Assembly: GCA_028715785.1 (NCBI GenBank)
Contig: JAQURC010000006.1
Coordinates: forward strand, 21,630-85,629
From: Candidatus Omnitrophota bacterium
Lineage (GTDB): Bacteria > Omnitrophota > Gorgyraeia > Gygaellales > Profunditerraquicolaceae
Length of the DNA: 64,000 bases
Direction: 5' to 3'
Below, piece after piece: positions 45,349 to 63,668 of the stretch; the first letter of the stretch is position 1, and every line of letters starts with the position of its first letter. The notes beneath the pieces are model-generated. The model was not told where the DNA came from. It worked only from the letters and a program-made list of their open reading frames with translations, and searched no databases. The position numbers and the translations under genes were made by a program.

Positions 45349-45383
45349 ACACCCCGCGCTTATAAGGTATTGCGCGGGTATGG
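45349..45383. repeat. REP-like hairpin family R2 (ACACCCCGCGC-TTATAAGGTATT-GCGCGGGTAT), copy 1.
   Basis: ~10-bp GC-rich stem with a conserved 12-nt loop, starting 1 nt after the pstB stop. Further copies at 47899, 51208 (inverted) and 51287 (inverted). Confidence 0.7.
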
Positions 45384-45404
45384 CCTTGTGGCCAAGGAGG
45401 ATAA

Positions 45405-46073: not shown

Positions 46074-46082
46074 TTTCTAGTT

Positions 46083-46150
46083 GGGGGGACGTCCTCTTAG
46101 GGGACACCCTTTAAAAAGGGTGTCCCTTTTTGGCACGTCCCTTTTAATTT
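46083..46150. terminator. Nested double hairpin family T1, copy 2 (reverse-complement orientation of 23035-23091), followed by TTTTAATTT.
   Basis: GGGACGTCC-TCTTA-[GGGGACACCC-TTTAAAAA-GGGTGTCCC]-TTTTTGGCACGTCCC; 10 nt after the phoU2 stop. Confidence 0.55.
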
Positions 46151-46161
46151 AATATATCCCC

Positions 46162-46190
46162 TTGACCCCTCGTATTTAGTGGTATATAAT
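46162..46190 (+). promoter_or_regulatory. Sigma-70 promoter for the Lrp-family gene: TTGACC (46162-46167), 17 bp, TATAAT (46185-46190).
   Basis: Near-consensus -35, 17-bp spacer, perfect -10; ~70 nt before ATG 46261. Confidence 0.55.
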
Positions 46191-46260
46191 CCATTCAATA
46201 TCTGTTTAAATATTGTAAAATAATTTTTTAGGCCATTACAATAGCAAAAGGAGTGAAAAA

Positions 46261-46746
46261 ATGGATGAGATTCTAGAAATTTTAGAAAAAGACGGCCGGG
46301 CAAGCGTGGAAGATATCGCTAAAATGACCCGCAAGAATCCGGAGGATGTAAAAAAGGCGATCAAGAAATACGAAAAAGAGGGGGCAATTTTAAAATATAA
46401 GGCGGTAATCAATAAGGATTTGATTAAGGACAATGAATCCGAGGTCAGGGCTTTAATTGAGGTGAATATCATCCCCCAGAAGGACCTGGGTTTTGAGAAA
46501 ATTGCCGAGCGTATCTATTCATTCCCCGAGGTAACCAGTTGTTATTTAATCAGCGGAACATATGATTTATTGGTGGTTGTCGAGGGCAAGAACCTGCATA
46601 CGGTTTCCAACTTTGTGGCGGAGAAGCTTTCCTGTTTAGAGAATGTCCGCGGCACAGCCACCCATTTTTTATTGAAAAAGTATAAGGAAGACGGAGTAAT
46701 TTTGAAGCAGAAAGCGGAGAACAAAAGGATAGCCATATCCTATTAA
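46261..46746 (+). CDS. Lrp/AsnC-family transcriptional regulator.
   Basis: N-terminal HTH (ILEILEKDGRASVEDIAKMTRKNPEDVKKAIKKYE) and C-terminal RAM/ACT-like domain (ALIEVNI..., TYDLLVVVEG). 161 aa. Confidence 0.75.
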   Translation: MDEILEILEKDGRASVEDIAKMTRKNPEDVKKAIKKYEKEGAILKYKAVINKDLIKDNESEVRALIEVNIIPQKDLGFEKIAERIYSFPEVTSCYLISGTYDLLVVVEGKNLHTVSNFVAEKLSCLENVRGTATHFLLKKYKEDGVILKQKAENKRIAISY

Positions 46747-47950: not shown

Positions 47951-48673
47951 ATGGCTGCTAAAAAAGACAATTTCCAGGTTTATGTAAAACAGATTGAGGC
48001 TATTTCAAAAGTGGCAAACCTGCTTACTTCCGGGATGTATTTGGAAGAGCTCCTGCGTTTAGTGGTGCAGGTTACCGCTGAAATTATGAACTCCAAAATT
48101 TCTTCTTTGATGCTGCTTGACCCGGAGAAAAAAGAGCTGGTGGTTAAAGCTACGCAGTCAATATCCGAGGCCTACAATAAAAAGCCTAATATCCGTTTAG
48201 GCGAAGGTATAGCCGGCATGGTTGCCCGGGAGAATAAGCCGATGTGTATCCTGGATGTTAAAAGCGATGCGCGCTATCTAAACCAGGATGTGGCTAAAAA
48301 AGAGGGCTTATGTTCTTTGGCTTGCGTGCCGTTGGCAGTCAAGGGAAGAGTCATCGGGGTACTCAACTGTTATACTTCTAAAAAGCACAAATTTTCTAAA
48401 CACGAATTGGATCTTTTGACGGCTCTGGCCAATCAGGCGGCCATTGCTATCGAAAACGCAGAGCTGGATTTACGCGTCCGCTCGGCAGAAGAGGCCCTGA
48501 CCATTCGTAAGCTGGTCGAGAGGGCAAAGGACATCCTTTCCCAGGAAGCAAACATTGCGCCTTCAGAAGCATACCGTTTGATCCAGAAGCAAAGTATGGA
48601 TATGCGAAAATCCATGCGCGAGGTGGCCGAGGCGATTATTCTGGCAAAAGATATAAGGACCAGGAAAAAATGA
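47951..48673 (+). CDS. GAF-ANTAR one-component RNA-binding antitermination regulator.
   Basis: N-terminal GAF-like domain (~aa 20-170). C-terminal ANTAR domain ending ...[45 protein letters not shown], matching the ANTAR helical signature. 4-nt overlap with nadE. Confidence 0.7.
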
Positions 48674-50355
48674 AAGATAAATCTTTGCGCCTGGCAATTG
48701 CGCAGGTAAATTCCACTGTCGGCGACCTGCGAGGGAATGCCGCTAAAATCAGCCGGTATATCGAAAAAGCAAAAGATTGCGGCGCAGATATCGTCTGTTT
48801 CCCGGAATTGGCGCTTTGCGGATACCCTCCCGAAGACCTCCTGTTAAAACCAAAATTCATCAGTGATAACCTCAAAGCCTTAAAAAAGTTGGCCAGGGCC
48901 ATAAAAGGCAATATCACCGCGATTGTAGGTTTTGCCGATGGCAGGGGCAAAGTGGCCTATAATGCCGCCGCGGTAATTTATAACCGGAAAATTAAAGGGG
49001 TCTACCGCAAGGTCCTTCTGCCCAATTACGGGGTTTTTGATGAGAAACGTTATTTTGAGCCCGGAGACAAGCCCCTGGTTTTTAAGTTTGGTGATTTTAT
49101 CTTTGGAGTAAATATCTGTGAGGACATTTGGTATCCGAGCGGCCCGACAAAATCGCAGGCGGAAGCGGGAGCAAAATTAATCCTGAATATCAATGCCTCT
49201 CCCTATTATGCGGCTAAATTCAAGCAAAGGCAGGCGGTTATTGCCGGCCAGGCCAAGAGCAACAGGGTGTTTGTGGTTTACGCTAACCTTGTCGGCGGCC
49301 AGGATGAGCTGGTATTTGACGGCCAGAGCATGATTGTCGATAATAAGGGGAAAACGCTGGCGCGCGCCAGGGCCTTTGCGGAGGATTTATTAATCCAGGA
49401 TTTAGATATTCCCGCAAGCAAGGTAAGCCCTTCTAGAAAGATAATTAGAATTTCGAACATATTGCAGCCGGCAAAGAAAAAAATAGTTACCCAGGAAGAG
49501 CCTGAGATTTTACGGCCTGTAGAAGAGATTTACCGGGCATTGGTCTTAGGATTAAGGGATTATGTGCTTAAAAACGGTTTTGGAAAAGTTATCATCGGTT
49601 TAAGCGGCGGGATTGATTCTTCTTTGGTGGCGGCGCTGGCAGTGGATGCTTTAGGTAAAGAAAATGTTACCGGCGTATTCATGCCTTCGCGCTATTCTTC
49701 CAGCCACTCACATGAAGACGCTATCATGCTAGCGAGAAATTTAGGGATTAAATTTATCACTATTTCTATCGAGCAAATATTCAAGTTTTACCTGTTGGCG
49801 CTTGAGCCGCATTTTAAAGGCCTGGGAAGGGATAGCGCCGAGGAGAACCTGCAGGCGCGCATAAGAGGTAATATCCTGATGGCTTTTTCCAACAAATTCG
49901 GCTGGCTGGTCCTGGCTACCGGAAATAAATCAGAGATGAGCACCGGTTATGCCACTCTTTACGGCGATATGGCCGGAGGGCTTGCCGTGATCAAAGATGT
50001 GCCCAAAACATTGGTTTATAAATTATCCAGGCACAGGAATTCTATCTGTCAAGTTATCCCCGAGCGCGTATTTACCAAGGCCCCTACTGCCGAACTGAAA
50101 CCAAACCAGAAGGACCAGGATACCCTGCCGCCTTATGAAATCCTGGATGCGATCCTGAAAGCCTATGTTGAAGAAGATAAGGATTTGGCAAAAATTGTCT
50201 CTTCAGGTTTTAATAAAGAAACAGTCAATAAGACTATTAGTATGGTGGATAAAAATGAATATAAACGCAGGCAGTCTCCGCCGGGTATCAAGATTACGCC
50301 CAAGGCCTTTGGCCGGGACAGGCGCATGCCGATTACCAATAAGTACCGCGGTTAG
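48670..50355 (+). CDS. nadE: Glutamine-dependent NAD+ synthetase NadE (N-terminal nitrilase/glutaminase domain plus C-terminal synthetase domain).
   Basis: CN-hydrolase domain (LRLAIAQVN..., catalytic context [19 protein letters not shown]). PP-loop GLSGGIDSS and the NAD synthetase core. Confidence 0.85.
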
Positions 50356-51062: not shown

Positions 51063-51129
51063 ATTTTAGTTGACAAATCCCTAAAATGTGTTAAACTTTA
51101 AATAGATTACAGCGTTGTAGTAAAAGACA

Positions 51130-51176
51130 CAGAAGTCTTCTGGCAGGAAAGTTTGCCCAGAAGGCTTTTTTATTTG
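51130..51176 (+). terminator. Rho-independent terminator after dedA (CTTCTGGC ... GCCCAGAAGGC + TTTTTTATTT).
   Basis: ~9-bp stem with one bulge followed by a T-run, 70 nt after the stop. Confidence 0.5.
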
Positions 51177-51186
51177 TCAGGACTAA

Positions 51187-51320
51187 GGCGTCCTTTGCCC
51201 ACCGGGGCACATCCGCGCAATACCTTATAAGCGCGGGGTGTACCCATATGGGGCCAAAGGACGTTTTTGTTTTCCACCACCTGGTGGACATCCGCGCAAT
51301 ACCTATTAGCGCGGGGTGTT
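51187..51320. repeat. Structured region with two inverted-orientation R2 hairpins (51208-51244 and 51287-51320). The first is nested in an outer stem GGCGTCCTTTGCCC / GGGCCAAAGGACG + TTTTTGTTTT. It precedes the sigma-factor gene.
   Basis: CACATCCGCGC-AATACCTTATAA-GCGCGGGGTGT and GACATCCGCGC-AATACCTATTA-GCGCGGGGTGT, the reverse complements of the 45349 family. The outer 13-bp inverted repeat plus T-run resembles a terminator. Confidence 0.65.
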
Positions 51321-51334
51321 ATGAGGATTAAAAT

Positions 51335-51853
51335 ATGAGTTTTGAAGAGCTGCACCAGAAACTGTCGCCGACAATCAAGCGGATTGCCTATAAGCTAAAC
51401 GGGCGTTATCGCTCCTTTAACCATGACGACCTGTATCAGGAGGCATCAATCCACCTTTGGAGCAATTTTCTAAAAGGAAAGCTTAGCGATAAGACCGAAA
51501 GCTATATCCTGCAGGGGTGTTATTTTCATCTGAAAAATTATATCCGTAAGGTGAATGAACGCTCCAATGTTATCAGTATTGATGCTACGTTGAGCGCGGA
51601 TGGGGCAACTATAGAGGATGTGTTGGGGAAATATTGGTCTTCTCCGGATTGCCGGGGGCAATTGCATAATATATTTTTAGCGCGGAGTATCCAGAATAAT
51701 GGTTTCAACCTCAAAGAAAAAAAGCTGCTTGCCTATTTCAGCCAGGGCCTGACTACCAGAGAGATAGGCAAGCGTATGGGGATCTCTCACGTTAGCGTAG
51801 TAAAGCTGATGCAGAAGGTTAGAGCCAGGGCCCAAAAACATTTGGATAAATAA
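51335..51853 (+). CDS. Small sigma-70-family / LuxR-type HTH protein (ECF-like sigma factor, 172 aa).
   Basis: Region-2-like segment (DDLYQEASIHLWSNF) and C-terminal region-4 HTH (LTTREIGKRMGISHVSVVKLMQKVR). Confidence 0.5.
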   Translation: MSFEELHQKLSPTIKRIAYKLNGRYRSFNHDDLYQEASIHLWSNFLKGKLSDKTESYILQGCYFHLKNYIRKVNERSNVISIDATLSADGATIEDVLGKYWSSPDCRGQLHNIFLARSIQNNGFNLKEKKLLAYFSQGLTTREIGKRMGISHVSVVKLMQKVRARAQKHLDK

Positions 51854-51920: not shown

Positions 51921-51951
51921 GGTTACCAGATTTAAGCATTCTTTACTTGTA
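51921..51951 (+). promoter_or_regulatory. Conserved promoter/operator-like motif GGTTACCA-N11-TCTTTACTTGTA (copy 1 of 3), preceded by the perfect palindrome CAAATTTTGC-TAC-GCAAAATTTG (51899-51921).
   Basis: Same bipartite motif at 54591 and 56928, each upstream of a nitrogen-assimilation unit and each preceded by an A/T-rich tract. Confidence 0.55.
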
Positions 51952-51989
51952 GTGACGTAAGGCACATTGAAGTGTAAGATTTAAACATA

Positions 51990-52020
51990 GGCGTTCTATG
52001 AAAATAGAGCGCCTTTTTTA
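51990..52020 (+). terminator. Leader terminator/attenuator: GGCGTTCTAT-GAAA-ATAGAGCGCC + TTTTTTATT. Alternative hairpin CATAG-GCGTT-CTATG (51985-51999) overlaps its 5' arm.
   Basis: 10-bp stem, GNRA tetraloop, U-tract. It sits between the conserved motif and the RBS GGAAAGGAG of the OMP gene. Mutually exclusive alternative pairing is seen directly in the sequence. Confidence 0.6.
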
Positions 52021-52036
52021 TTCGGAAAGGAGAATA

Positions 52037-52864
52037 ATGGCGAAACGAATTGGATTGATTTTTGCGGTTTTCTGCGTCTTTGTTTTATCAAATGCGTACG
52101 CAACTCCTTCAACGCACATCTGGGCTCCGTCAACGGATATCCAGCCTTATAAGAAAATCCACGTTACCTCGGATTTTTATTTTCCCACGACCGGCAAAGG
52201 CACCAACGCCGATAATTACGATCAGCATAATTATGTCCAGCAGGTATACGGCCTTACCTTTAGTTTATTATCGGATAAACCGGAAGAGAATCTTTTAGGC
52301 AAACTCTGGCAGCCGCTGGGAAAGATTATGGCGGAGACCGGTTTTGATTATAAAAAGGGGTTTGGTTCTTTCTATGATTCGACTCCCTGGTATTTTCATT
52401 TTAAGTTCGGCATCCCCGAAGGTTATTCAAAATTTACCTGCCCGTTAGGCAGCGCGGATATGCCCGCAATCGCCGCGGGTATGTATGACATGGGAACCAG
52501 AAGCCACCGGACGAATTATAACGTTGCTTATGTTAAGGCCGCAAAGACCGTTAATCTAGGCAAGGTTAATCTGGGAAGGTTTTCCGCCGGTTATTTTAAG
52601 GGAAATGGCAGGCTGCTTAGGGGCAGGGATGGTTTGCGGGATAACGCCGGGCCGATGTTTGCCTGGGAACGCACAATGTGCGAGATAAGCCCGAAGTTAT
52701 GGCTGTGCGTGGATTATCAGGGCACGCAATCATCTTACGGAGCGATTAATTACGGTTTTGCCTGGAGTTTTACGCCGGACATCTCGGCGATCCTTGCGTA
52801 TGATATTTATAATAACCGTAATTTAACCGACACTATTACGCTTCAATTGGATATTAATTTCTAA
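52037..52864 (+). CDS. Outer-membrane beta-barrel protein, first gene of the amt operon. Start MAKRIGLIFAV... at 52037; the track's 51998 start lies inside the leader hairpin.
   Basis: Signal peptide ending SNAYA. Beta-strand-rich, ends ...LQLDINF (terminal Phe). RBS GGAAAGGAG 7 nt upstream. Confidence 0.55.
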   Translation: MAKRIGLIFAVFCVFVLSNAYATPSTHIWAPSTDIQPYKKIHVTSDFYFPTTGKGTNADNYDQHNYVQQVYGLTFSLLSDKPEENLLGKLWQPLGKIMAETGFDYKKGFGSFYDSTPWYFHFKFGIPEGYSKFTCPLGSADMPAIAAGMYDMGTRSHRTNYNVAYVKAAKTVNLGKVNLGRFSAGYFKGNGRLLRGRDGLRDNAGPMFAWERTMCEISPKLWLCVDYQGTQSSYGAINYGFAWSFTPDISAILAYDIYNNRNLTDTITLQLDINF

Positions 52865-52879
52865 CAGAGGAGGAGCCAA

Positions 52880-54106
52880 ATGAATTCAGGCGATACAGCA
52901 TGGGTGTTAATCTCATCAGCCCTGGTTTTACTGATGACCCCCGGCCTTGCTTTTTTCTACGGAGGCATGGTGCGGCGAAAAAATGTTTTAAGCGTTTTGA
53001 TGCAGTGTTTTATTATTATGTGTGTCTTAAGCCTGCAATGGGTTTTGATTGGTTATAGCTTATCATTTCATCCGGGAAATGGGTTTTGGGGAGGTCTGCA
53101 ATGGCTGGGTTTAAACGGAGTGGGGTTGGAGCCTTACGCGGATTACGCCGGCACAATTCCGCATCAGGCGTTTATGATCTTTCAGGCGATGTTCGCCATA
53201 ATTACTCCGGCTTTGATTATCGGCGCGTTTGCCGAGAGGATGAAATTTTCCGCGTTTCTGATTTTTACTCTGCTTTGGGCAACTTTTGTTTATGATCCGT
53301 TATGCCATTGGGTTTGGGGAATGGGCGGATGGTTAAGGAATTTAGGGGCAATGGATTTTGCCGGAGGAACTGTCGTGCATATTAATGCCGGTATTGCCGC
53401 TCTTGTTACGGCAATAGTATTAGGCAGAAGAGGTAATTTAGAAAAAAATGTGCCTACTCCGCATAATATGCCTTTCGTGGTTTTGGGCACAGGGCTCTTA
53501 TGGTTTGGCTGGTTTGGTTTTAATGCCGGAAGCGCTTTGGCGGCAAATGGATTAGCGGTAAACGCCTTTGTCGTAACCAATACTGCCGCCGCGGCTGCGG
53601 GATTAAGCTGGGCGTTGATTGAATGGATACGCAATGGCAAACCCACAATTTTCGGCGTATGTTCCGGGGCGGTCGCCGGGTTAGTCGCGATTACTCCGGC
53701 AGCCGGGTTTGTGGGCGTGGTTGCGGCGATAATTATCGGTTTATTAGTCAGCGTGATTTGTTTTATCGCTGTAACTGTGATTAAGCCTCTGTTCGGTTAT
53801 GATGATTCTCTTGATGCCTTCGGCGTGCATTGCGTAGGAGGGATTTGGGGGGCCTTGGCTACCGGATTATTCGCTTCAAAATTAGTTAACCCTGCCGGAG
53901 CCGACGGATTATTTTTTGGCAACCCCAAACAATTCCTAACACAGCTTTTAGCCGTAGCCGTAACTATTGTTTATACGGCGGTTGTAACATTCGTAATTTA
54001 TAAATTAGTGGATATTTTTGTCGGGGTCAGGGTGGATGAAAAATCCGAAGCTATTGGCTTGGACCTTACGCAGCATCGCGAGAGAGCGTATACGATATTA
54101 GAATGA
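52880..54106 (+). CDS. amtB: Ammonium transporter Amt.
   Basis: 11 TM helices. Amt signature blocks (DFAGGTVVHINAGIAALV, twin-His context GFNAGSAL ... GVHCVGGIWG). Confidence 0.85.
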   Translation: MNSGDTAWVLISSALVLLMTPGLAFFYGGMVRRKNVLSVLMQCFIIMCVLSLQWVLIGYSLSFHPGNGFWGGLQWLGLNGVGLEPYADYAGTIPHQAFMIFQAMFAIITPALIIGAFAERMKFSAFLIFTLLWATFVYDPLCHWVWGMGGWLRNLGAMDFAGGTVVHINAGIAALVTAIVLGRRGNLEKNVPTPHNMPFVVLGTGLLWFGWFGFNAGSALAANGLAVNAFVVTNTAAAAAGLSWALIEWIRNGKPTIFGVCSGAVAGLVAITPAAGFVGVVAAIIIGLLVSVICFIAVTVIKPLFGYDDSLDAFGVHCVGGIWGALATGLFASKLVNPAGADGLFFGNPKQFLTQLLAVAVTIVYTAVVTFVIYKLVDIFVGVRVDEKSEAIGLDLTQHRERAYTILE

Positions 54107-54113
54107 GAAACAT

Positions 54114-54168
54114 GGGGACGGTTCTATTTTTCCATAGCTAACCGTGTTCGAAAAATAGAACCGTCCCC
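54114..54168 (+). other. Long perfect hairpin family T2, copy 2 (GGGGACGGTTCTATTTTT-19 nt loop-AAAAATAGAACCGTCCCC) between amt and glnB.
   Basis: 18-bp perfect stem. Related to the terminator at 17289 (shared arms GGGGACGKTTCTATTTTT and loop start CATAGC). No strong U-tract, so probably a partial terminator or processing site. Confidence 0.5.
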
Positions 54169-54195
54169 AGGATTTTAAAAACTCGGGAGGTATAA

Positions 54196-54537
54196 ATGAA
54201 ATTAATTATTGCGATAATTCAACCCTATAAATTAGAAGAGGTAAAAGAAGAATTGTATAAAGCGGAAGTAAATCTAATTACGGTCAGTGAGGTTTTAGGC
54301 CACGGCCGCCAGAAGGGCCTGACCGAAGTTTACCGCGGCGCAAAGGAAACCGGAAATCTCCTGCGCAAAATCCGCCTTGAGATCGCGGTAAATGATAATT
54401 ATCTTGAGCCAACCATTAAAGCAATCGTCAAAGGTGCCAAAACCGGCGAAACCGGCGACGGAAAAATTTTTGTGCTGGATTTAAAAGAGTGTGTGCGTAT
54501 AAGGACTGAAGAGCGCGGAAGCTTGGCGATAGGATAG
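54196..54537 (+). CDS. glnB: Nitrogen regulatory protein P-II (GlnB/GlnK).
   Basis: 113 aa. [20 protein letters not shown]..., T-loop region GHGRQKG..YRGA, C-terminal GDGKIFV. Confidence 0.85.
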
Positions 54538-54590: not shown

Positions 54591-54621
54591 GGTTACCAAC
54601 GCTTTGTATTTCTTACTTGTA
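54591..54621 (+). promoter_or_regulatory. Conserved motif GGTTACCA-N11-TTCTTACTTGTA (copy 2), upstream of the GS type III gene. A weak hairpin plus U-tract (54643-54672) follows in the leader.
   Basis: Identical half-sites to the copies at 51921 and 56928. Leader contains GGGGC...GCCTC followed by TTTTATTTT. Confidence 0.55.
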
Positions 54622-54727
54622 ATTAGAGGACGGGGGCGTTCTGGGGCCTTAAAGAATGCCTCTTTTATTTTAACTTAATTGTGGTAAAATTAAACTTAAC
54701 GGAAGAATAGATAATCAGGAGGAAGGA

Positions 54728-56923
54728 ATGAGCATAAGACAGAAAGTTCTATTTAAAATTAAAAGCACCGAATTAGAAAAAATAGATTTTCCTAAAAAAG
54801 TTTCCTCTTATTTCGGCGTGAATACCTTTAGCACGGAAACTATGCAAAAGCATATTTCTAAAGGTACTTTTGAGGCATTCAAGACCTGGATGTCTGAAGG
54901 TAAAACCATAACTTTAGCGCAGGCAAACGAAATTGCCGATGCGATGAAGGAGTGGGCAATTGCCAAAGGCGCTACCTATTATACGCACTGGTTCCAGCCG
55001 ATGACCGGGCTTACCGCGGAAAAGCACGACAGCTTTATTTCGATAACCGCTCCGGGAAAAGTAATCGAAAAATTCTCGGGGAATAAATTAATCCAGGGGG
55101 AGCCGGATGCATCCAGCTTTCCTTCAGGAGGAATCCGGGCGACCTTTGAAGCCAGAGGTTATACTGCCTGGGATCCATCAAGTGCGGCGTTTATTATCGA
55201 AAGTACGCTTGGCAAAACTTTGTGTATCCCCACAATATTTATTTCTTACCACGGTGAAGCTTTAGACAAGAAGCTGCCGCTTTTGCGTTCGGATGAAGCG
55301 TTAAATAACGCCGCTTTAGGCCTGATTAAACTTTTCGGCCATAAAGATGTAAAAAAGATATTTTCTACCTGCGGTCCGGAGCAGGAATATTTCCTGATCG
55401 ATAAGAACTATTACAATTTACGCCAGGATTTGATCATGACCGGCCGGACCCTGGTTGGAGCGCCGTCTCCTAAAGGCCAGCAGTTAGAGGACCAGTATTT
55501 CGGCACGATTAAAGAGCGGGTGGTTAATTTTATGTTCGAGGTCGCTGAAGAGGCTTACAAGCTGGGCATACCGGTAATGACCCGGCACAATGAAGTTGCC
55601 CCGCATCAGTATGAATTTGCTCCGATATTCGAAGAATCAAATATCGCCGCCGATCACAATCAACTGCTTATGGAATTGATGAAAAAGATTGCCTTAAGGC
55701 ATGGGATGGTCTGCCTTTTGCATGAGAAACCTTTTGCCGGAATCAACGGCAGCGGAAAACACCTGAACTGGTCGCTGGCCGATGATAAAGGCAATAACCT
55801 GCTTAATCCCGGGCAGACTCCGGAGGATAACCTGCAGTTTTTGGCAGTTTTAGCCGCGGTATTAAGAGCGGTCTATCTGCACGCTGATCTCCTGCGTGCT
55901 TCGGTTGCCCTGGCTGGCAATGAACATCGCTTAGGCGCTAACGAGGCCCCTCCGGCCATTATCAGCGTATTTTTAGGCGAACAATTGACTTCGATCCTGG
56001 ACATGATTGAAAAAGGGGCTAAATCCAAAGTTTCTAAAAGCGACATTATCGATTTAGGGATAGGCCGCCTGCCCAAATTTAACAAGGATACAACCGATAG
56101 GAACCGCACCTCGCCTTTTGCCTTTACCGGGGCCAAATTTGAATTTCGCGCCGTCGGTTCATCGCAGAATATCTCCACACCCATCGCGGTAATCAATACC
56201 ATTATTGCTGAAAGCCTTGATTATGTTGCTGAGCAGATTAAAAAGGCCAAGTCCACGGGCAAGGATTTTAATTCCGCGGTATTGCTGGTAATCTCTAAGA
56301 TTGTTAAAGAGACCAAGGATATCCGCTTTGAAGGAAATAACTACGCGCAAGAGTGGATTAAAGAAGCTAAGAAACGGGGACTGCCGAACATCGCTTCGAC
56401 TTACCAGTCCCTGGAGGCTTTAACCAAAAAAGAGAATATCGCCCTTTTTGAGAAATACAAAGTCTTTTCTAAAGAAGAGCTGATCGCCCGTTACCATATC
56501 TGGATCCATATGTATAACCTGACCCTGGAAATCGAGGCCAATACCTTAAACGAAATGGTTAATGCTTCGGTAGTGCCGGCAGGTTATGAATATGAAAAAT
56601 TATTGGCGGCAAACCTGGACGCGTTAGTCAAATTACATAAAGACGCCAGCCTGAAAGTTGATAGCGGAGCGTTAAAAGACAAAAAGGATCATTTGGCTGA
56701 GATAGTTGCCAAGATTTATTATGTGCGCAGGAATGTCGGTGAAATGGTTAAGTTGCTTGAGGATGCCGGTAAACTAAACAACGAAAAACGCGCCGCGCTT
56801 TATTTTGATGAGCTTAAGCCTTTGATGGAGCATATTCGAAGGCACGTTGATCAGCTGGAATGCGTAGTTTCCGATGATGCCTGGGATCTGCCTAAGTATC
56901 GGGAAATGCTGTTCATAAAATAA
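54728..56923 (+). CDS. glnN: Glutamine synthetase type III (GlnN/GSIII).
   Basis: 731 aa, the characteristic GSIII length. GS catalytic-domain motifs (NGSGKHLNWS, EYEFAPIFEESN, AAVLRAVYLHADLLRAS, NRTSPFAFTGAKFEFRAVGSS). Confidence 0.8.
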   Translation: MSIRQKVLFKIKSTELEKIDFPKKVSSYFGVNTFSTETMQKHISKGTFEAFKTWMSEGKTITLAQANEIADAMKEWAIAKGATYYTHWFQPMTGLTAEKHDSFISITAPGKVIEKFSGNKLIQGEPDASSFPSGGIRATFEARGYTAWDPSSAAFIIESTLGKTLCIPTIFISYHGEALDKKLPLLRSDEALNNAALGLIKLFGHKDVKKIFSTCGPEQEYFLIDKNYYNLRQDLIMTGRTLVGAPSPKGQQLEDQYFGTIKERVVNFMFEVAEEAYKLGIPVMTRHNEVAPHQYEFAPIFEESNIAADHNQLLMELMKKIALRHGMVCLLHEKPFAGINGSGKHLNWSLADDKGNNLLNPGQTPEDNLQFLAVLAAVLRAVYLHADLLRASVALAGNEHRLGANEAPPAIISVFLGEQLTSILDMIEKGAKSKVSKSDIIDLGIGRLPKFNKDTTDRNRTSPFAFTGAKFEFRAVGSSQNISTPIAVINTIIAESLDYVAEQIKKAKSTGKDFNSAVLLVISKIVKETKDIRFEGNNYAQEWIKEAKKRGLPNIASTYQSLEALTKKENIALFEKYKVFSKEELIARYHIWIHMYNLTLEIEANTLNEMVNASVVPAGYEYEKLLAANLDALVKLHKDASLKVDSGALKDKKDHLAEIVAKIYYVRRNVGEMVKLLEDAGKLNNEKRAALYFDELKPLMEHIRRHVDQLECVVSDDAWDLPKYREMLFIK

Positions 56924-56927
56924 AAAG

Positions 56928-56958
56928 GGTTACCAAAACAGCCCTTTTCTTACTTGTA
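56928..56958 (+). promoter_or_regulatory. Conserved motif GGTTACCA-N11-TTCTTACTTGTA (copy 3), 5 nt after the glnN stop and upstream of the gltBD leader.
   Basis: Third exact occurrence of both half-sites with identical 11-nt spacing. Confidence 0.55.
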
Positions 56959-57001
56959 TATATAGACACGCTGTTGTGTTTATCATAACGAATAGAACGT
57001 A

Positions 57002-57052
57002 GACGTTCATGCTGGCTAAAACTGTTTTTTGCCAAAATGAACGTCTTTTTTT
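57002..57052 (+). terminator. Leader terminator: GACGTTCAT ... ATGAACGTC + TTTTTTTG. Alternative upstream hairpin GAACG-TAGA-CGTTC (56995-57008) overlaps its 5' arm.
   Basis: 9-bp stem with internal substructure and a 7-T run. It lies between the conserved motif and gltB. The ORF track's ATG at 57037 lies inside the 3' arm. Confidence 0.55.
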
Positions 57053-57084
57053 GTCAACAGCCATGCCTAAAGTTTGGGCATAAT

Positions 57085-57468
57085 ATGATTACTATAGTTA
57101 TTACCGAAGATGAAACAAAGGCAAAAGAGGCTTTGGCTAAGATGTTAAAGCAGGAGGGGTACACTTTATCCCCGGATACAAGCCGGGAAAATGTAATCCG
57201 CGTCGTGAAAAAGGATTGTATAAGGGACCTGGCTTTTATCAAAGACAGGGTAGTGGAATTAGAAAATTCATTGTTTATTGAAAAAAAGGGAGTATTGTAT
57301 AAATCCGTTTTGGAGGCAATCGAGAAACCTTTGCTTGAACAGACGCTAGAGCGTTGTGAAGGCAACCAGCTTAAAGCCGCCCGCATCCTGGGGATTAACC
57401 GCAACACCATGCGGGCCAAAATTAACAAATTAGGTATTGATGTTTCAAGGTGGAAAATAAATTTATGA
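57085..57468 (+). CDS. Small Fis-type HTH protein (like the C-terminal DNA-binding domain of NtrC-family activators, without receiver or AAA+ domains). Start uncertain: 57085 or 57037.
   Basis: C-terminus LEQTLERCEGNQLKAARILGINRNTMRAKINKLGI is the Fis/NtrC HTH signature. The preceding ~80 aa have no sigma-54 activator motifs (no GAFTGA, no Walker A). Confidence 0.5.
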   Translation: MITIVITEDETKAKEALAKMLKQEGYTLSPDTSRENVIRVVKKDCIRDLAFIKDRVVELENSLFIEKKGVLYKSVLEAIEKPLLEQTLERCEGNQLKAARILGINRNTMRAKINKLGIDVSRWKINL

Positions 57469-60400
57469 AACAGGCGCGTTTACCAAAAAAGCAGGGTCTA
57501 TACGACCCGCGGTTTGAGCATGATTCCTGCGGAGTAGGGTTTGTTTGCAATATCAAAGGCAAGAAAAGCCATGATATTGTTAAGCAGGGGCTGGAGGTTT
57601 TACGGCGCTTAAGCCACCGCGGAGCAACCGGCGCGGACCCTAAAACCGGTGACGGCGCGGGCCTGCTTATCCAGTTTCCTCATGAATTTTTTGTATCGAT
57701 ATGCGCGAAAGAAAAGATCAATCTGCCTAAAGAAGGTGAATATGCCTCAGGGTTAGTCTTCCTGCCGCAGGATGCCAAAGAGCGCAGGTTTTGTAAAGAG
57801 GCCTTTGAGAAAATAATTAATAGCGAAGGGCAGTTATTTTTGGGCTGGCGTAATGTACCGGTAGATAATTCTGATATCGGCCAGAGCGCCAAAGACACCC
57901 AGCCGGTGATCGAGCAGATATTTATTGGCGCTGCTGCGGTGTCATTGCGAGCCCCGAAGGGGCGAAGCAATCCAAAAGAGATTGCTTCGTCGCCTGCGGC
58001 TCCTGGCAATGACAATTTAGATAACCTGGCTTTTGAAAGAAAGCTTTATGTTATTCGTAGGCAGGTTGAAAATATTATCCGCGCCTCCAAAATAAAACAA
58101 AAAACATCTTTCTATATTCCCAGCTTGTCCGGCCGCACATTTATCTATAAGGGCCTGCTTATGCCGCATCAGGTAGAAAACTTCTTTTTGGATTTAAGTT
58201 CCCAGGAAATTAAAAGCGCTTTAGCCATGGTCCATTCGCGTTACTCTACCAATACTTTTCCCACCTGGGACCTCTCTCAACCGTTTAGATTTATCGCCCA
58301 TAACGGAGAGATCAATACTTTAAGGGGCAATATTAATTGGATGCGTGCCCGCCAAAACTTCTTAAAGAGCCAATTATTCGGCCAAGACTTAAAGAAAATA
58401 TTTCCGGTAATTGTTCCGGGCGGCAGTGATTCGGCGGCCATTGATAATGTTTTTGAGCTCCTGACCTTGTCCGGCAGAAGCCTGACGCAGGCAATCTCGA
58501 TGCTCATACCGGCTGCTTGGGAACAGAATAACCTGCTTACCCAGGAGGTAAGGGCTTTTCATAAATACCACACCTGTCTTATTGAGCCCTGGGACGGCCC
58601 GGCAGCCATGGTTTTTACTGACGGGATATCTATCGGAGCAGTGCTTGACCGTAACGGATTGCGGCCCTGCCGTTATATTGTTACCAAAGATGATTTTGTG
58701 GTGATGGCCTCCGAAGTAGGAGTTTTAGATATCGATCCTGCCAAGATCCTTCATTCAGGACGGCTTGAGCCGGGCAAGGCATTTTTTATCGATACCAAAG
58801 CCGGGTGCATAATTGAAGACAGCCGGATAAAAAAAGAGCTCAGCGAAGATAAGCCATACGATCAATGGGTTAAGAAGAATATACTGGAGTTAGACAGTTT
58901 AAAAGACAGAGGACAGAAGACAGAAGATAGAGGACAGAGGAGAGAAACAAATATTTTGACCCAATTAAAGGTTTTTGGTTATACCCGCGAAGATCTGAAA
59001 ATGATTATTAAGCCGATGGCTGAAAATGCCCAGGAACCGGTGGGCTCGATGGGCAATGATACCCCGCACGCCGTACTTTCAACCAGGCCGCAACTCTTGT
59101 TTTCCTATTTTAAACAATTATTCGCCCAGGTAACTAACCCTCCGATTGATCCTATCCGTGAGGAGCTGGTGATGAGCCTGGCCAGTTATTTGGGCCCGGA
59201 AAAGAATATTTTAAGCGATGGAGAGGACCACTGCCATAAATTATTAGTAAAACAGCCGATTTTAAACGACGCGGAATTAAAGAAAATCAGAAAAATTAGA
59301 ACAAGCGGATTTAGGACTAAAACAATCTCCATAAATTTTAAGATTTCCGAAAAGGACGCCTTCAAAAGGACATTGGAGAGAATACGTAAAGAGGCAGAGC
59401 AGGCGATATCCGCCAAAGGCGGATCCCTGCCTGTCCGGCAGGCAGGCGCCTCCGGCGGAAAAAAAGGCTATACTTTTATTATTTTAAGCGACCGCGGAGT
59501 GAATAAAGATTATGCCGCTATTCCCAGCCTCCTGGCGGTTTCAGCGCTGCACCATTATCTGGTGCGCCGTTCTTTGCGCACGCAGATCAGCATTATTTTA
59601 GAGAGCGCCGAGCCCCGCGAAGTAAATCATTTTGCCCTGCTTTTTGCCTACGGAGTTGATTGTGTTAATCCGTATCTTGTATTTGGCGCCTTGGAAAAGA
59701 TGGCTAAAGAGAAAGAATTGAACCTTGGCGCCGAGAAGGCAAAGCATAATTACATAAAAGCCATCGACAAAGGGATACTCAAAGTCCTTTCCAAGATGGG
59801 CATCTCGACTTTACAGAGTTACCGCGGGGCCCAGATTTTTGAAGCGGTGGGATTAAATAAAAGCGTAATTGATGAATATTTCACCGGCACAGTTTCCCGG
59901 ATTAACGGCGCATCTTTAGGGGTAATTGTTAAAGAAACTATTCTGCGCCATAAGGAGGCTTTTGCCGTAAGGAGCCAAGGCGAAAATCATCTGGCTTCCG
60001 GCGGCCTTTATCAGTGGAGGCGCGACGGAGAATTCCATCTCTGGAACCCGGACACGATTGCCGCTTTGCAGGATGCCGCGCGCAATAATGATGCCAAAAA
60101 ATATCAGGAGTTTGCCAGCTTAATTAATGATCAGTCAAAAAATCCGACTACTCTAAGAAGCCTGCTAAAATTTAAAATACAAAAATCTATCCCGCTAAGT
60201 GAAGTTGAGCCGGTTGAAGAAATTGTAAAAAGGTTTGCTACCGGGGCGATGAGTTTTGGCTCAATCAGCCGCGCCACGCATGAAACGATTGCTATCGCCA
60301 TGAATAGGTTAGGTGGAAGGTCTAATACTGGAGAGGGCGGCGAAGACCCCGCGCGTTTTGTTCCGTTGCCTGGCGGAGATTCTGCCAGAAGCGCGATAAA

Positions 60401-62132
60401 GCAGGTTGCCTCCGGGCGTTTCGGCGTAACCACGAATTATTTAGTTAATGCCGATGAAATCCAGATAAAAATGGCCCAAGGCGCAAAACCCGGCGAGGGC
60501 GGCCAGCTTCCCGGGCATAAGGTAAGCGCGATAATCGCCAAGACCCGCTATACTACCCCGGGAGTTACTTTGATTTCCCCGCCTCCGCACCATGATATAT
60601 ATTCAATCGAAGATTTAGCGCAGCTTATCTTTGACCTAAAAAACGCAAATCCCAAAGCGCGGATTAGCGTAAAATTAGTTTCTGAAATCGGCGTAGGCAC
60701 GGTAGCCGCGGGTGTGGCTAAAGGGCATGCCGATATGATCCTTATTTCCGGCCAGGACGGAGGCACCGGAGCTTCTCCTTTGAGTTCAATTAAACACGCC
60801 GGACTTCCCTGGGAGCTGGGGCTTTCCGAAACGCACCAGACTTTAGTCTTAAATGATTTAAGGAGCAGGGTGCGCCTGCAGAGTGACGGCCAGATGCGCA
60901 CCGGACGGGATGTGGCGATTGCCGCAATGCTTGGCGCCGAAGAGTTCGGTTTCTGCACCGCGGTATTAATCGTGTTGGGATGCGTGATGCTGCGTCATTG
61001 TAATTTAAATAATTGTTCGGTAGGGATTGCTACCCAAGATGAGATCCTGGAAAAAAGATTTACCGGCCGGCCGGAATATATTATTAATTATTTTACCTTT
61101 ATCGCCGATGAACTGCGCCAGATCATGAGCTCTTTAGGCATAAAAAAATTAGAGGATATGGTCGGCAGGGTGGATCTGCTGGAATTGAATCAGGAGATTT
61201 TACCCTGGAAGGCAAAAGAAATCGATTTTTCTAAAATCCTTTATAAACCTCAGGTGCCGGAGTCAGTAATTACGCATTATTGTAAAAAACAGGACCATGG
61301 TATTGATAAGATTCTGGATTTAAAGTTGATTGAATTATCCGAGCCGGCATTGGCAGAAGCTAAAAACGTGGAAATAAATCAAAAGATCGAAAACGTAAAC
61401 CGCGCCACCGGGGCAATGTTAAGCGGGGAGGTTTGCCGGCGGTTTGGCGAAAGCGGGCTGCCCGAAGATACGATTAAATGTAATTTTAAAGGGGTGGCCG
61501 GCCAAAGCTTCGGGGCTTTTTTGGCCAAAGGGATAACTTTTGCCCTGGAAGGCATGGCTAATGATTATGTGGGCAAAGGGATATCCGGAGGTAAAATTAT
61601 AATTTATCCGGATAAAAAAGTTGATTACAAACCGGATGAAAATATTATTATCGGCAACACTACTTTCTACGGGGCAATCAACGGAGAGGCATATATACGG
61701 GGGGTTGCCGGAGAGAGGTTCTGTATCCGGAATTCCGGGTTAAATGCGGTTATTGAGGGTTTGGGAGACCACGGTTGTGAATATATGACCGGAGGAAGGG
61801 TGGTTGTCCTGGGAAAATGCGGCAGGAATTTCGGGGCAGGGATGTCCGGGGGGATTGCCTATTGTCTGGATGAAAGAAGAGATTTTAAGAAAAAATGTAA
61901 TTTGGAGATGGTGGCTTTGGAGAAAATAAATGCCCAAGACGCAGAGACGATCAAAAACCTGCTGTTTAACCACCGCAAATACACGCAAAGCTTTAAAGCC
62001 AAAGAGATTCTCGATGATTTTCATAAGTATGCCAATCTTTTTGTCAAAGTCATGCCTTTGGAATACAAACGTATATTGGAAGAAAAAAAGGCTGTTGGGA
62101 AGGCTGACCTGGGAGAATATACTGATGGGTGA
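57450..62132 (+). CDS. gltB: Glutamate synthase large subunit GltB (1560 aa), carrying an in-frame family-M repeat insertion and a low-complexity linker insert.
   Basis: Ntn amidotransferase start HDSCGVGFVCN. Central and FMN domains (GGKKGYTFIILSDRG, FGVTTNYLVNADEIQIKMAQGAKPGEGGQLPG, ISGQDGGTGASP). C-terminal GXGXG beta-helix (GAINGEAYIRGVAGERF). Confidence 0.9.
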   Translation: MENKFMKQARLPKKQGLYDPRFEHDSCGVGFVCNIKGKKSHDIVKQGLEVLRRLSHRGATGADPKTGDGAGLLIQFPHEFFVSICAKEKINLPKEGEYASGLVFLPQDAKERRFCKEAFEKIINSEGQLFLGWRNVPVDNSDIGQSAKDTQPVIEQIFIGAAAVSLRAPKGRSNPKEIASSPAAPGNDNLDNLAFERKLYVIRRQVENIIRASKIKQKTSFYIPSLSGRTFIYKGLLMPHQVENFFLDLSSQEIKSALAMVHSRYSTNTFPTWDLSQPFRFIAHNGEINTLRGNINWMRARQNFLKSQLFGQDLKKIFPVIVPGGSDSAAIDNVFELLTLSGRSLTQAISMLIPAAWEQNNLLTQEVRAFHKYHTCLIEPWDGPAAMVFTDGISIGAVLDRNGLRPCRYIVTKDDFVVMASEVGVLDIDPAKILHSGRLEPGKAFFIDTKAGCIIEDSRIKKELSEDKPYDQWVKKNILELDSLKDRGQKTEDRGQRRETNILTQLKVFGYTREDLKMIIKPMAENAQEPVGSMGNDTPHAVLSTRPQLLFSYFKQLFAQVTNPPIDPIREELVMSLASYLGPEKNILSDGEDHCHKLLVKQPILNDAELKKIRKIRTSGFRTKTISINFKISEKDAFKRTLERIRKEAEQAISAKGGSLPVRQAGASGGKKGYTFIILSDRGVNKDYAAIPSLLAVSALHHYLVRRSLRTQISIILESAEPREVNHFALLFAYGVDCVNPYLVFGALEKMAKEKELNLGAEKAKHNYIKAIDKGILKVLSKMGISTLQSYRGAQIFEAVGLNKSVIDEYFTGTVSRINGASLGVIVKETILRHKEAFAVRSQGENHLASGGLYQWRRDGEFHLWNPDTIAALQDAARNNDAKKYQEFASLINDQSKNPTTLRSLLKFKIQKSIPLSEVEPVEEIVKRFATGAMSFGSISRATHETIAIAMNRLGGRSNTGEGGEDPARFVPLPGGDSARSAIKQVASGRFGVTTNYLVNADEIQIKMAQGAKPGEGGQLPGHKVSAIIAKTRYTTPGVTLISPPPHHDIYSIEDLAQLIFDLKNANPKARISVKLVSEIGVGTVAAGVAKGHADMILISGQDGGTGASPLSSIKHAGLPWELGLSETHQTLVLNDLRSRVRLQSDGQMRTGRDVAIAAMLGAEEFGFCTAVLIVLGCVMLRHCNLNNCSVGIATQDEILEKRFTGRPEYIINYFTFIADELRQIMSSLGIKKLEDMVGRVDLLELNQEILPWKAKEIDFSKILYKPQVPESVITHYCKKQDHGIDKILDLKLIELSEPALAEAKNVEINQKIENVNRATGAMLSGEVCRRFGESGLPEDTIKCNFKGVAGQSFGAFLAKGITFALEGMANDYVGKGISGGKIIIYPDKKVDYKPDENIIIGNTTFYGAINGEAYIRGVAGERFCIRNSGLNAVIEGLGDHGCEYMTGGRVVVLGKCGRNFGAGMSGGIAYCLDERRDFKKKCNLEMVALEKINAQDAETIKNLLFNHRKYTQSFKAKEILDDFHKYANLFVKVMPLEYKRILEEKKAVGKADLGEYTDG
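57939..58016. repeat. MITE/REP-like family M, copy 4, inserted in-frame within gltB (encodes AAVSLRAPKGRSNPKEIASSPAAPGND).
   Basis: GTGTCATTGCGAGCCCCGAAGGGGCGAAGCAATCCAAAAGAGATTGCTTCGTCGCCTGCGGCTCCTGGCAATGACAAT. Same terminal and internal inverted repeats as the intergenic copies. 78 nt, which is 26 codons, with no stop. Confidence 0.8.
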
Positions 62133-63567
62133 TCCAAAAGGATTCTTAAAAGTTAAAAGACAGCCCGGGACATACCGTCTGGTTTGCGAAAGAATAAAAG
62201 ATTTCGCCGAAGTTAATTTATTGCGGACTGAATTTCAAAACAAGGAGCAGGCATCGCGCTGTATGGATTGCGGCACGCCTTTTTGCCACTCCGGCTGCCC
62301 CATCGGTAATTATATACCGGAATGGAATGACCTTGTTTTTGCCGGCCAGTGGGAAAAGGCCTTTAGTTTACTTAACGCCACCAATAACCTTCCGGAAATT
62401 ACCGGAAGGATTTGCCCTGCGCTTTGTGAATATGCCTGTGTTTTGGGGATCAATGATGACCCGGTAACGATTCGGGAAAACGAATTGAGTATTATCGAGT
62501 ATGCCTTTAAGAATGATTTAATCCAGCCGCGAATTTTAAGCAAGAGGACAGGAAAAAAAATAGCCGTAGTCGGTTCCGGGCCGGCAGGCCTGGCCTGCGC
62601 CGACCAGCTGAATTGCGCCGGGCATAAGGTTGTGGTTTTTGAAAGGGATGATGCCATTGGAGGAATTTTGCGTTATGGGATCCCCGAGTTTAAGCTGGAG
62701 AAGAAAATAATCGACCGCCGGATAAAGATCCTGCAAAAGGAAGGGATAAAATTTAAAACGAATGTTGATGTAGGCGCGGATTTATCCGCGCGAAAATTGT
62801 TGCGGGAGTTTGACGCGGTTTGTATTGCCTGCGGGTCGCGGCAGCCGCGGGACCTGCATATTGAGGGCAGAAACCTTTCCGGCATCCATTTTGCCATGGA
62901 TTATTTGATTCAATCCAATAAAAGGATAAAAGGAGAGAGGATACCGGATGATTTATTGATTGACGCAAAGGATAAGCGCGTAGCGGTGATCGGCGGAGGA
63001 GATACCGGAGCAGATTGCGTGGGAGTGGCGCATCGGCAAGGCGCATCCTGCGTTACGCAGATCGAGATTATGCCTAAACCCGCCTCCTGCCGCACTAAAG
63101 ATTACCCCTGGCCAAAGTATCCTTTATTGCTTAAATCTTCGACCAGCCATGAAGAAGGCGGACAAAGAGATTGGTCAATATTAACCAAAAAATTTACCGG
63201 CTCAAGCGGAAAGGTAAAAAAACTTTCCTGCGCAAGGGTGGAGTTTAAAAAAGATGCCGCGGGGTGCCCGGTCATGCAGGAAGTAAGGGATTCGGAGTTT
63301 GAAATCGAAACCGACCTGGTGATTCTGGCTTTGGGTTTTTTGCACCCTGAGAAAAAAGGGATAATCGAGGAACTCAGATTGGATTTGGATCAAAAGGGAA
63401 ATGTAAAAACAAGCGATAATTTTATGACTTCTAACGAAGGCCTGTTTGCCTGTGGAGATATGCGCCGCGGCCAATCCCTGATTGTCTGGGCAATTGCCGA
63501 AGGCAGGCGCGCTGCCCACTATATCGACAAATACCTTATGGGTGATTCAATCCTGCCGGTGTTATAA
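62125..63567 (+). CDS. gltD: Glutamate synthase small subunit GltD (NADPH-dependent). Start MGDPKGF at 62125 (8-nt overlap with gltB); the track's 61930 extension is rejected.
   Basis: N-terminal Fe-S cysteine clusters ([17 protein letters not shown]; CPALCEYAC). FAD/NADPH Rossmann motifs [12 protein letters not shown] and [14 protein letters not shown]-terminal [18 protein letters not shown]. Confidence 0.9.
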
Positions 63568-63572
63568 AATTC

Positions 63573-63668
63573 GTAACAGTTCAACTCTTGGAAGCGCTCC
63601 GACAAGATTGTAGGGCAGGTTTAAACCTGCCCTACGACGATCTCCTTCTGAAAGCTGAACTGTTACTA
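63573..63668. repeat. Composite nested hairpin after gltD: outer arms GTAACAGTTCAACTCTTGGAAG / CTTCTGAAAGCTGAACTGTTAC enclose P1 palindrome copy D (63610-63635, GTAGGGCAGG-TTTAAA-CCTGCCCTAC).
   Basis: Perfect 26-nt GTTTAAAC-centred palindrome flanked by a ~22-nt imperfect inverted repeat, 6 nt after the stop. Likely operon terminator or REP. Confidence 0.65.

Follow-up and report, generated by a model that had tools for sequence, protein, structure and literature searches.

The ANTAR target described for EutV and NasR consists of two short stem-loops with hexaloops, in which loop positions 1 and 4 are critical and the second hairpin competes with a terminator (PMC3369931). Ramesh et al. predicted in 2012 that ANTAR elements precede amt and the genes for P-II, glutamine synthase and glutamate synthase across diverse bacteria, and the principle of ANTAR nitrogen regulons is thus already known (PMC3369931). 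In Geobacter, GnfR, whose RNA site is CAGGCAANGGCGCC, antiterminates the glnK and amtB leaders (PMC2995071). The sensor types covered by two reviews are REC, pseudo-REC, NIT and PAS/LOV only (PMC7496416, PMC12591593), and our literature search found no characterised GAF-ANTAR regulator, no ANTAR attenuation of a sigma-factor gene and no sigma factor of the extracytoplasmic function (ECF) type dedicated to ammonium or nitrogen assimilation. Here, we analysed a 64-kb stretch of contig JAQURC010000006.1 from a Candidatus Omnitrophota bacterium (hereafter the window), in which an open reading frame (ORF) at positions 47951-48673 encodes a GAF-ANTAR protein upstream of genes for ammonium assimilation. 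An earlier note, made from the sequence alone, had proposed this protein as an antiterminator of the amt, glnN and gltB leaders, with the Geobacter GnfR, correctly cited, as precedent. Comparative evidence supports ANTAR-type antitermination of these nitrogen-gene leaders, and does so more strongly than the note had anticipated; we consider it probable that the GAF-ANTAR protein acts as a one-component antiterminator of transcription for an ammonium-assimilation regulon that also includes the cascade of a sigma factor, named SigL here.

The predicted system has the ANTAR output, the dual-hexaloop target and the nitrogen-metabolism theme of EutV, NasR and AmiR (PMC3369931). It differs from them in its sensor, which is a GAF domain where theirs are REC, NIT or pseudo-receiver domains, and in its targets, which would be core ammonium-assimilation genes together with a sigma-factor gene. 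Moreover, loop position 1 is here A or G, the glnN leader has a single hairpin, and the host is an uncultured Omnitrophota bacterium. With GnfK/GnfR, which act on nif, glnK and amtB leaders, the locus would share ANTAR antitermination of nitrogen genes placed beneath a control of transcription initiation, and the loop of the GnfR site is of the same type as that of the second hairpin described below (A-N-N-G-G-C, followed by the terminator arm) (PMC2995071). The REC domain of GnfR is, however, phosphorylated by a kinase and the system is under sigma-54/GnfM, whereas here we find a one-component GAF protein and an ECF-type sigma factor whose own mRNA appears to be ANTAR-gated.

The regulator is a protein of 240 amino acids. 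Its identity, as read in the earlier note, is borne out by Pfam: the N-terminus is a GAF domain (PF13185, 1.7e-25, approximately residues 31-168, with GAF_2/GAF above the Pfam cut-off) and the C-terminus is an ANTAR domain (PF03861, residues 179-230, 58.3 bits against a cut-off of 27.3). Sequence matches of this C-terminal region in the PDB are the ANTAR regions of Rv1626, NasR and a response regulator. No Response_reg match was found by Pfam in the N-terminus, and the protein is therefore not a REC-ANTAR member of the GnfR type, even though the proposed mechanism would be that of EutV, NasR and AmiR and above all that of GnfR. Homologues with 80-96% identity are encoded in many Omnitrophota metagenome-assembled genomes (MAGs), and within the window this is the only ANTAR ORF. 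The end of the regulator ORF and the start of the next gene, for a glutamine-dependent NAD synthetase, share 4 nt (ATGA), and the upstream neighbor is a class I/II aminotransferase gene; the overlap and the aminotransferase had already been noted from the letters. This nadE gene (48670..50355; Pfam CN_hydrolase and NAD_synthase) is translationally coupled to the regulator gene, and the ANTAR-nadE adjacency is found repeatedly in Omnitrophota and Nitrospirota loci. After nadE follow genes for a DedA/VTT membrane protein, a 172-residue sigma-like protein, a signal-peptide protein, Amt, P-II, a type III glutamine synthetase, a small HTH_8 protein, GltB and GltD; Pfam thus identifies amt, P-II, glutamine synthetase and gltB/gltD in the nitrogen island that had been recognised. 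The regulator gene, nadE, sigL and the target genes, promoters and leaders described below all lie on the + strand.

RNA folding bore out the terminators postulated earlier in the amt, glnN and gltB leaders. They form strong hairpins followed by U-runs, with energies of -20.6, -17.3 and -28.4 kcal/mol and z-scores of -4.1, -2.2 and -5.0, respectively. A simple terminator scan caught only one leader terminator because of its loop-size limit, and RNAfold was used instead. The CGTTC pentamer reported for the three leaders does lie within the 5′ arm of each terminator, and it extends to GRCGUUC in relatives. In the leader of the amt operon (51962..52020), the first hairpin (P1) is GCAC-AUUGAA-GUGU at 51962-51975 and the second (P2) is AAC-AUAGGC-GUU at 51984-51995, overlapping a terminator at 51989-52014 that is followed by U6. 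In the leader of the gltB operon (56962..57053), P1 is AUAGACAC-GCUGUU-GUGUUUAU at 56962-56983 and P2 is GAAC-GUAGAC-GUUC at 56995-57008, overlapping a terminator at 57001-57046 that is followed by U7. The glnN leader (54629..54672) folds with one hairpin and no P1; its hairpin, GGAC-GGGGGC-GUUC at 54629-54642, overlaps the terminator at 54632-54663, again followed by a U-run, and reads GAAC-AGNGGC-GUUC in orthologues.

These hairpins replace the pairings proposed in the earlier note. The alternative structure CATAG-GCGTT-CTATG in the amt leader is located at 51986-52000, one base away from where it had been placed, and is peculiar to this genome: among 14 orthologous leaders, a single one allows it to pair completely. 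The inner 3 bp of the overlapping hexaloop hairpin AAC-AUAGGC-GUU are retained in 10/14. For GAACG-TAGA-CGTTC in the gltB leader the coordinates 56995-57008 were exact; its reading as a tetraloop, however, is possible in only 3 of 10 relatives. The statement that a dual hexaloop with A at position 1 and G at position 4 was not evident came from loops taken in the wrong register. In the correct register, G stands at position 4 and a purine at position 1 in every one of the window loops AUUGAA and AUAGGC (amt), GCUGUU and GUAGAC (gltB), and GGGGGC (glnN); the amt and sigL leaders are of the A1/G4 kind, the gltB and glnN leaders of the G1/G4 kind.

The same arrangement is found upstream of sigL, a gene that the earlier proposal had not counted among the targets. 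SigL (51335..51853, 172 amino acids) belongs to the ECF-type sigma-70 family, with a match to NCBIfam TIGR02937 of 50.1 bits against a cut-off of 42.9 across residues 3-170; Pfam adds weak Sigma70_r2 and GerE-like region 4 matches. Homologues form 985 clusters, and among the 120 matches listed all those with an organism name are Omnitrophota; one copy with 100% identity is encoded on an NCBI Omnitrophica contig of 98.9 kb. The leader is preceded by a sigma-70-type promoter found by consensus scan (51070..51097, TTGACA-16-TAAACT with TG upstream of the -10 box), in which TTGACA is invariant and the -10 box present in nine aligned orthologous regions. The dual hairpin (51106..51140) consists of P1′ AUUAC-AGCGUU-GUAGU at 51106-51121 and P2′ AAGAC-ACAGAA-GUCUU at 51125-51140, both with A1/G4 loops, and the loop and 3′ half of P2′ overlap the 5′ arm of a terminator, T1 (51131..51175, followed by U6). 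RNAfold gives a minimum free energy of -22.5 kcal/mol for the T1 fold against -10.6 kcal/mol when P1′ and P2′ are enforced. A second module (51180..51268) then follows, in which the hairpin GGAC-UAAGGC-GUCC (51180-51193) overlaps a further terminator, T2 (51185-51267, with U-run), and GGACUAAGGCGUCCUUU is invariant in alignment A2. The promoter, P1′/P2′/T1 and the second hairpin with T2 are all kept in L001-L008, L014 and L021. As a separate observation, a REP-like palindrome (...CCGCGCAATACCT...AGCGCGGGGTGT) occurs in four intergenic copies in the window, against 0.12 expected by chance, at 45365 and 47915 on the - strand and at 51213 and 51292 on the + strand; one copy lies inside the T2 loop and one between the aminotransferase and ANTAR genes.

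Two short hexaloop stem-loops are therefore present in the sigL, amt and gltB leaders, with one hairpin in the glnN leader. In all four leaders of the window the terminator-proximal stem-loop overlaps the 5′ arm of a U-tract terminator, and the two structures are mutually exclusive; the overlap is also seen in 21/21 folded dual-hairpin leaders (two from the window and 19 from relatives). Since the terminators are favored by 9-17 kcal/mol over folds with P1 and P2 enforced, termination would be the default state and P2 would have to be stabilised by a factor.

To compare relatives, 80 loci were collected by a genome scan with the regulator protein, and the window proteins were mapped onto them by tblastn. 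The labels R1 and R2 were used both for two covariance models of the motif and for two lineages of GAF-ANTAR paralogs, and we specify below which is meant. The conserved leader elements in orthologues are P1, CAC-RNNGNN-GUG, and P2, GAAC-RNNGRC-GUUC, with the GRCGUUC portion of P2 (loop and 3′ half) serving as the 5′ arm of the terminator. Position 4 of the P1 loop is G in all 40 leaders, with A in 28 and G in 12 at position 1; for P2, position 4 is G in 59 of 60 hairpins, with 41 A and 12 G at position 1. The third pair of P2 alternates between A-U (24 hairpins), G-C (22) and G-U (9).

Covariation across relatives, a check proposed in the earlier note, was scored on structure-blind MAFFT alignments. 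The amt and gltB leaders taken alone (A1) showed almost no covariation, the core stems being invariant, and sigL, gdhA and paralog leaders were added. Both stems then covary. For P1, 4/5 pairs covary with 34 cells in which both sides are changed, a score that none of 500 shuffles reached, and 86.5% of the cells are paired against 15-46% with the partners slid. For P1 and P2 together (A4, 35 leaders, none of them from the window), 6/9 pairs covary with 48 cells of both-side changes, again with 0/500 shuffles at that score, and 86% of the cells are paired against 23-43% with the partners slid. A4 is a realignment with the sequences trimmed at the 3′ end of P2, MAFFT having moved the sigL-type P2 by 2 nt in A3.

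A regular expression for paired R..G.. hexaloops followed by a T-run gave dozens of chance matches in the window, and covariance models were used instead. Covariance model R2, trained on other genomes only and searched with filters off, gave three strong matches in the 64 kb (34-42 bits, E = 4e-8 to 2e-6), namely the amt leader (51959-51996, 41.6 bits), the sigL leader (51104-51138, 35.4 bits, E = 1.3e-6) and the gltB leader (56963-57008, 34.3 bits). The next-best match, at 11.3 bits, was the second hairpin of the sigL leader, and the glnN leader, which has P2 only, scored 7-13 bits in the covariance models. In the fetched loci, 38/39 matches of model R1 and 25/26 of model R2 are on the strand of the ANTAR gene.

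The motif was found upstream of amt, glnN, gltB, gdhA, carB-like, glutamine synthetase-like (glnA-like) and paralog-ANTAR genes in many Omnitrophota. Matches beyond the seed sequences include leaders of gdhA, a carB-like ORF, a glutamine synthetase-like ORF, amt and a second GAF-ANTAR paralog gene; the gdhA identity was confirmed for the L028 copy (ELFV dehydrogenase), and the others were recognised by near-identical N-termini. Gene order is also kept. L001-L008 and L021 have aminotransferase-ANTAR-sigL-(porin-like)-amt-glnB-glnN-HTH8-gltB, L031, L032 and L034 have ANTAR-nadE-sigL or ANTAR-nadE-glnN, L037 has ANTAR-nadE alone, and ANTAR-nadE-amt-glnB occurs in Nitrospirota loci. In one Nitrospira locus, a dual-hexaloop attenuator stands directly after the GAF-ANTAR gene and before nadE-amt-glnB; its parts are a sigma-70 promoter, then GGAGAC-AACGAC-GUCUCC and GGAC-AAUGGU-GUCC, and finally two terminators. 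Two further observations were made in these loci. The amt leaders of L001 (approximately 11508-11545), L003, L005, L008, L014 and L038 carry, after the first terminator, an extra tandem module ((A/G)GAC-GCAGGC-GUCU and a U-run), that is, a second P2-like hairpin with terminator that is absent from the amt leader of the window. In L059, L063, L068, L069, L071 and L073-L080 (Nitrospirota and Elusimicrobia-type loci), a small ORF approximately 70-500 nt upstream of the GAF-ANTAR gene resembles the regulator's GAF part (23-30% identity) and may encode a stand-alone GAF partner.

The three other target units of the window share an invariant promoter motif with identical spacing, GTTACCA-N14-TTACTTGTA (in full GGTTACCA-N14-TTACTTGTA), located at 51921..51951 before the porin-like gene, amt and glnB, at 54591..54621 before glnN, and at 56928..56958 before the HTH_8 gene and gltBD. 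TTACTTGTA occurs three times in the window, against 0.42 expected. Over 29 copies, all on the + strand, the logo is aaaatttrGTTACCAr-N9-TTnTTTACTTGTA, and the rigid spacing is ECF-like. The motif is present in 15/15 sequences encoding SigL and in 0/66 without it, and the ANTAR leaders of distant Omnitrophota without sigL nearby are driven by ordinary TTGACA/TATAAT promoters. From this co-occurrence, SigL most likely reads the GTTACCA-N14-TTACTTGTA promoter. SigL resembles other ECF sigma factors (TIGR02937) in its two-domain architecture of approximately 170 amino acids, in its presumed promoter, which is rigid, bipartite and highly conserved, and in the position of its gene next to the likely target operons. 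Unlike them, it has no recognised anti-sigma gene adjoining sigL and is apparently controlled by attenuation of its own leader. A fourth promoter candidate at 63662 was set aside, being a poor match with no leader.

Taken together, these data suggest the following mechanism. RNA polymerase would stop by default at the intrinsic terminator in the leaders of sigL, porin-amt-glnB, glnN and HTH8-gltBD, the first driven by a sigma-70 promoter and the other three units by the promoter most likely read by SigL. The leaders would carry the ANTAR recognition element, P1 (CAC-RNNGNN-GUG) and P2 (GAAC-RNNGRC-GUUC), in which the loop and 3′ half of P2 double as terminator arm. Upon nitrogen limitation, presumably sensed by the GAF domain, an ANTAR dimer would bind the two hexaloops in the nascent RNA and keep P2 closed, the terminator would not form, and polymerase would read through. 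Because sigL appears to be gated in the same way as its target operons, the circuit would be a coherent feed-forward loop, with the antiterminator needed for sigL and then again on every SigL-dependent transcript. In this scheme, the domain identities, the anatomy, conservation and covariation of the motif, its mutual exclusivity with the terminators, the synteny and the co-occurrence of promoter and sigma gene come from the sequence, and we infer the RNA binding by paralog R1, the lineage of the window regulator, the direction of the signal and the reading of the promoter by SigL.

The best NCBIfam family matches of the GAF domain are NifA (3e-15) and PtsP/EI-Ntr (5e-15), both far below the family cut-offs; among solved structures, it comes closest to the GAF domains of CyaB2, Nlh1/2, PtsP and NifA. 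The GAF domains of NifA and PtsP sense nitrogen-status metabolites. The similarity is partial only and the output domain here is ANTAR, unlike in those proteins; it would be compatible with a nitrogen-status ligand, for which 2-oxoglutarate or glutamine are guesses.

The regulator belongs to a GAF-ANTAR family with two lineages. Paralog R1, the window type, is linked to the aminotransferase and found in L001-L028 and L038, with sister branches in L030 and L066, while paralog R2 is more widespread and found in other Omnitrophota, Nitrospirota and Syntrophales-labelled MAGs. Both are encoded on one contig in L028 and in L038, and both are also present in the MAG Prado152 (L027, L042). The paralog R2 gene (L028:14682-15602, L038:7369-8321 and L042:6436-7253) is preceded by a dual-hexaloop/terminator leader of its own, and it sits with gdhA or with a Glu_synthase-domain gene, the latter following it in L028 and L038. 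Such an arrangement hints at auto- or cross-regulation among the paralogs.

The existence of two paralogs raises the main rival explanation, in which the leaders are indeed ANTAR attenuators, with paralog R2, encoded elsewhere in the genome, as the working regulator and R1 in a different or narrower role (sigL only, another signal, or a heterodimer with R2). The ANTAR domains of the two are nearly identical, R2 stands alone beside sigL/amt, nadE/glnN and gdhA leaders in other Omnitrophota and Nitrospirota, the two coexist in L028, L038 and Prado152, and the R2 gene carries its ANTAR-type leader. The case for paralog R1 as the binder follows from its genomic position. It is the sole ANTAR gene of the window and within 10 kb of all four leaders; it lies directly upstream of the sigL promoter and leader in L001-L008. 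In the window it precedes the sigL leader by 2.4 kb, in the same ANTAR-nadE-sigL order in which the regulator is found in L031. We regard a working R2 as rather unlikely. That the P1/P2 hairpins are bound by some other RNA-binding factor, or are protein-independent pause or processing signals with a coincidental ANTAR adjacency, appears very unlikely: short hairpins with sequence-invariant core stems would suit such a role, but the element agrees point by point with the published ANTAR definition (PMC3369931) and tracks GAF-ANTAR genes across phyla in the same strand orientation.

The inverted repeats might instead serve as operator sites in the DNA, bound by a dimeric transcription factor such as the Fis-HTH or Lrp protein encoded nearby, with the terminators as constitutive operon ends. 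CAC-N6-GTG and GAAC-N6-GTTC are palindromes in DNA as well, and the island does encode HTH_8 and Lrp/AsnC proteins. However, the many G-U pairs preserve the RNA helices and break the DNA symmetry, which favors an RNA helix, and the elements invariably come after the promoter, lie on the sense strand and overlap the terminator arm. In addition, both the amt-glnB operon and glnN have a 3′ hairpin of their own ahead of the promoter that follows, which makes leader attenuators a better explanation of the extra terminators than operon ends; we consider DNA operators highly improbable. (At 56923-56948, the glnN 3′ hairpin, AAAAGGG...CCCTTTT, runs into the GTTACCA -35-like element before gltB, with sequence common to terminator and promoter.) Finally, a protein-independent metabolite riboswitch can hardly be credited. 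Nitrogen genes in other phyla do use glutamine riboswitches, and the earlier note had named one as the finding that would displace a protein-mediated mechanism, but no Rfam family reached its gathering score in the window, and two hairpins of 3-5 bp with hexaloops offer no plausible ligand pocket. Between 51300 and 57600, Rfam matches at E <= 10 were scattered and at chance level, the best being the Moco model with 21 bits against a cut-off of 36.

Several points weigh against the proposed mechanism. In the leaders, the stem of the amt P2 is only 3 bp long, glnN lacks P1 and keeps only the single terminator-proximal hairpin, and loop position 1 is G, not A, in both gltB and glnN. The core stems (CAC/GUG, AC/GU) are nearly invariant, so that a large part of the signal reflects conserved sequence in rather closely related genomes. 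Related genomes encode paralog R2, approximately 54% identical overall with its nearly identical ANTAR domain, and the RNA motifs do not separate paralogs R1 and R2 into two classes. The likeness to the GAF domains of NifA and PtsP is generic and points to no particular ligand, and the proposed link between promoter and SigL is drawn from co-occurrence in phylogenetically related, syntenic loci. Moreover, the two reviews (PMC7496416, PMC12591593) contain no binding or termination data for any GAF-ANTAR protein. Against this stand the conserved signature, the covariation, the terminator overlap and the GAF-ANTAR linkage, which together support the proposed ANTAR antitermination of the amt, glnN and gltB leaders.

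The predicted target units were delimited as follows. The first (52037..54537) comprises the signal-peptide (porin-like) protein, the ammonium transporter Amt and P-II. The porin-like gene likely starts at 52037, with the ribosome-binding site AAAGGAG and a signal peptide, as the listed ORF start at 51998 falls inside the terminator; an L038 homologue has a weak Gcw_chp match. The second is the type III glutamine synthetase gene glnN (54728..56923; Pfam GSIII_N, Gln-synt_C and Gln-synt_C-ter). The third (57085..63567) comprises a small REC-like/Fis-HTH protein, gltB (large subunit) and gltD (small subunit). The first of these genes likely starts at 57085 (MITIVITEDE...), since orthologues begin with MITLLIAEDE, and not at the listed 57037 inside the terminator; its product has 127 residues, with a REC-like N-terminus and a Fis/NtrC-type HTH_8, and is co-transcribed with gltB. 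The listed ORFs that start inside leader terminators are thus 51998-52864 and 57037-57468. The listed gltD start at 61930 overlaps the end of gltB by approximately 200 nt (61930-62132), and the true start is probably further downstream. Directly upstream of the nitrogen island, at 43847-46746, are two pstB-like ABC ATPase genes, phoU and a gene for an Lrp/AsnC-family regulator, the latter directly 5′ of the aminotransferase-ANTAR pair.

The locus is a compact test case, with one regulator gene, four leaders with canonical elements, a sigma-factor gene under apparent attenuation and an invariant promoter, and its parts are small and lend themselves to tests in vitro or in E. coli that need no culture of the organism. 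It provides a candidate for a direct sensor of a nitrogen-status metabolite coupled to RNA binding, and what appears to be a case of attenuation taking the place of an anti-sigma factor in the control of an ECF-type sigma factor. More tentatively, and with some doubt on our part, ammonium assimilation in Omnitrophota may be organised as a two-tier, RNA-level feed-forward circuit, in which a metabolite-sensing GAF-ANTAR protein licenses the synthesis of a dedicated ECF sigma factor without anti-sigma partner and then licenses elongation on its transcripts, while the paralogs R1 and R2 would each pass a different nitrogen- or carbon-status signal to one common RNA element, with related attenuators in Nitrospirota. 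If true, Omnitrophota would have in this circuit a full alternative to the NtrBC/sigma-54, GlnR/TnrA and NtcA paradigms. For this uncultured phylum, the scheme put forward here would be a first model of how nitrogen assimilation is regulated, and some observations hint that it may reach into Nitrospirota as well.

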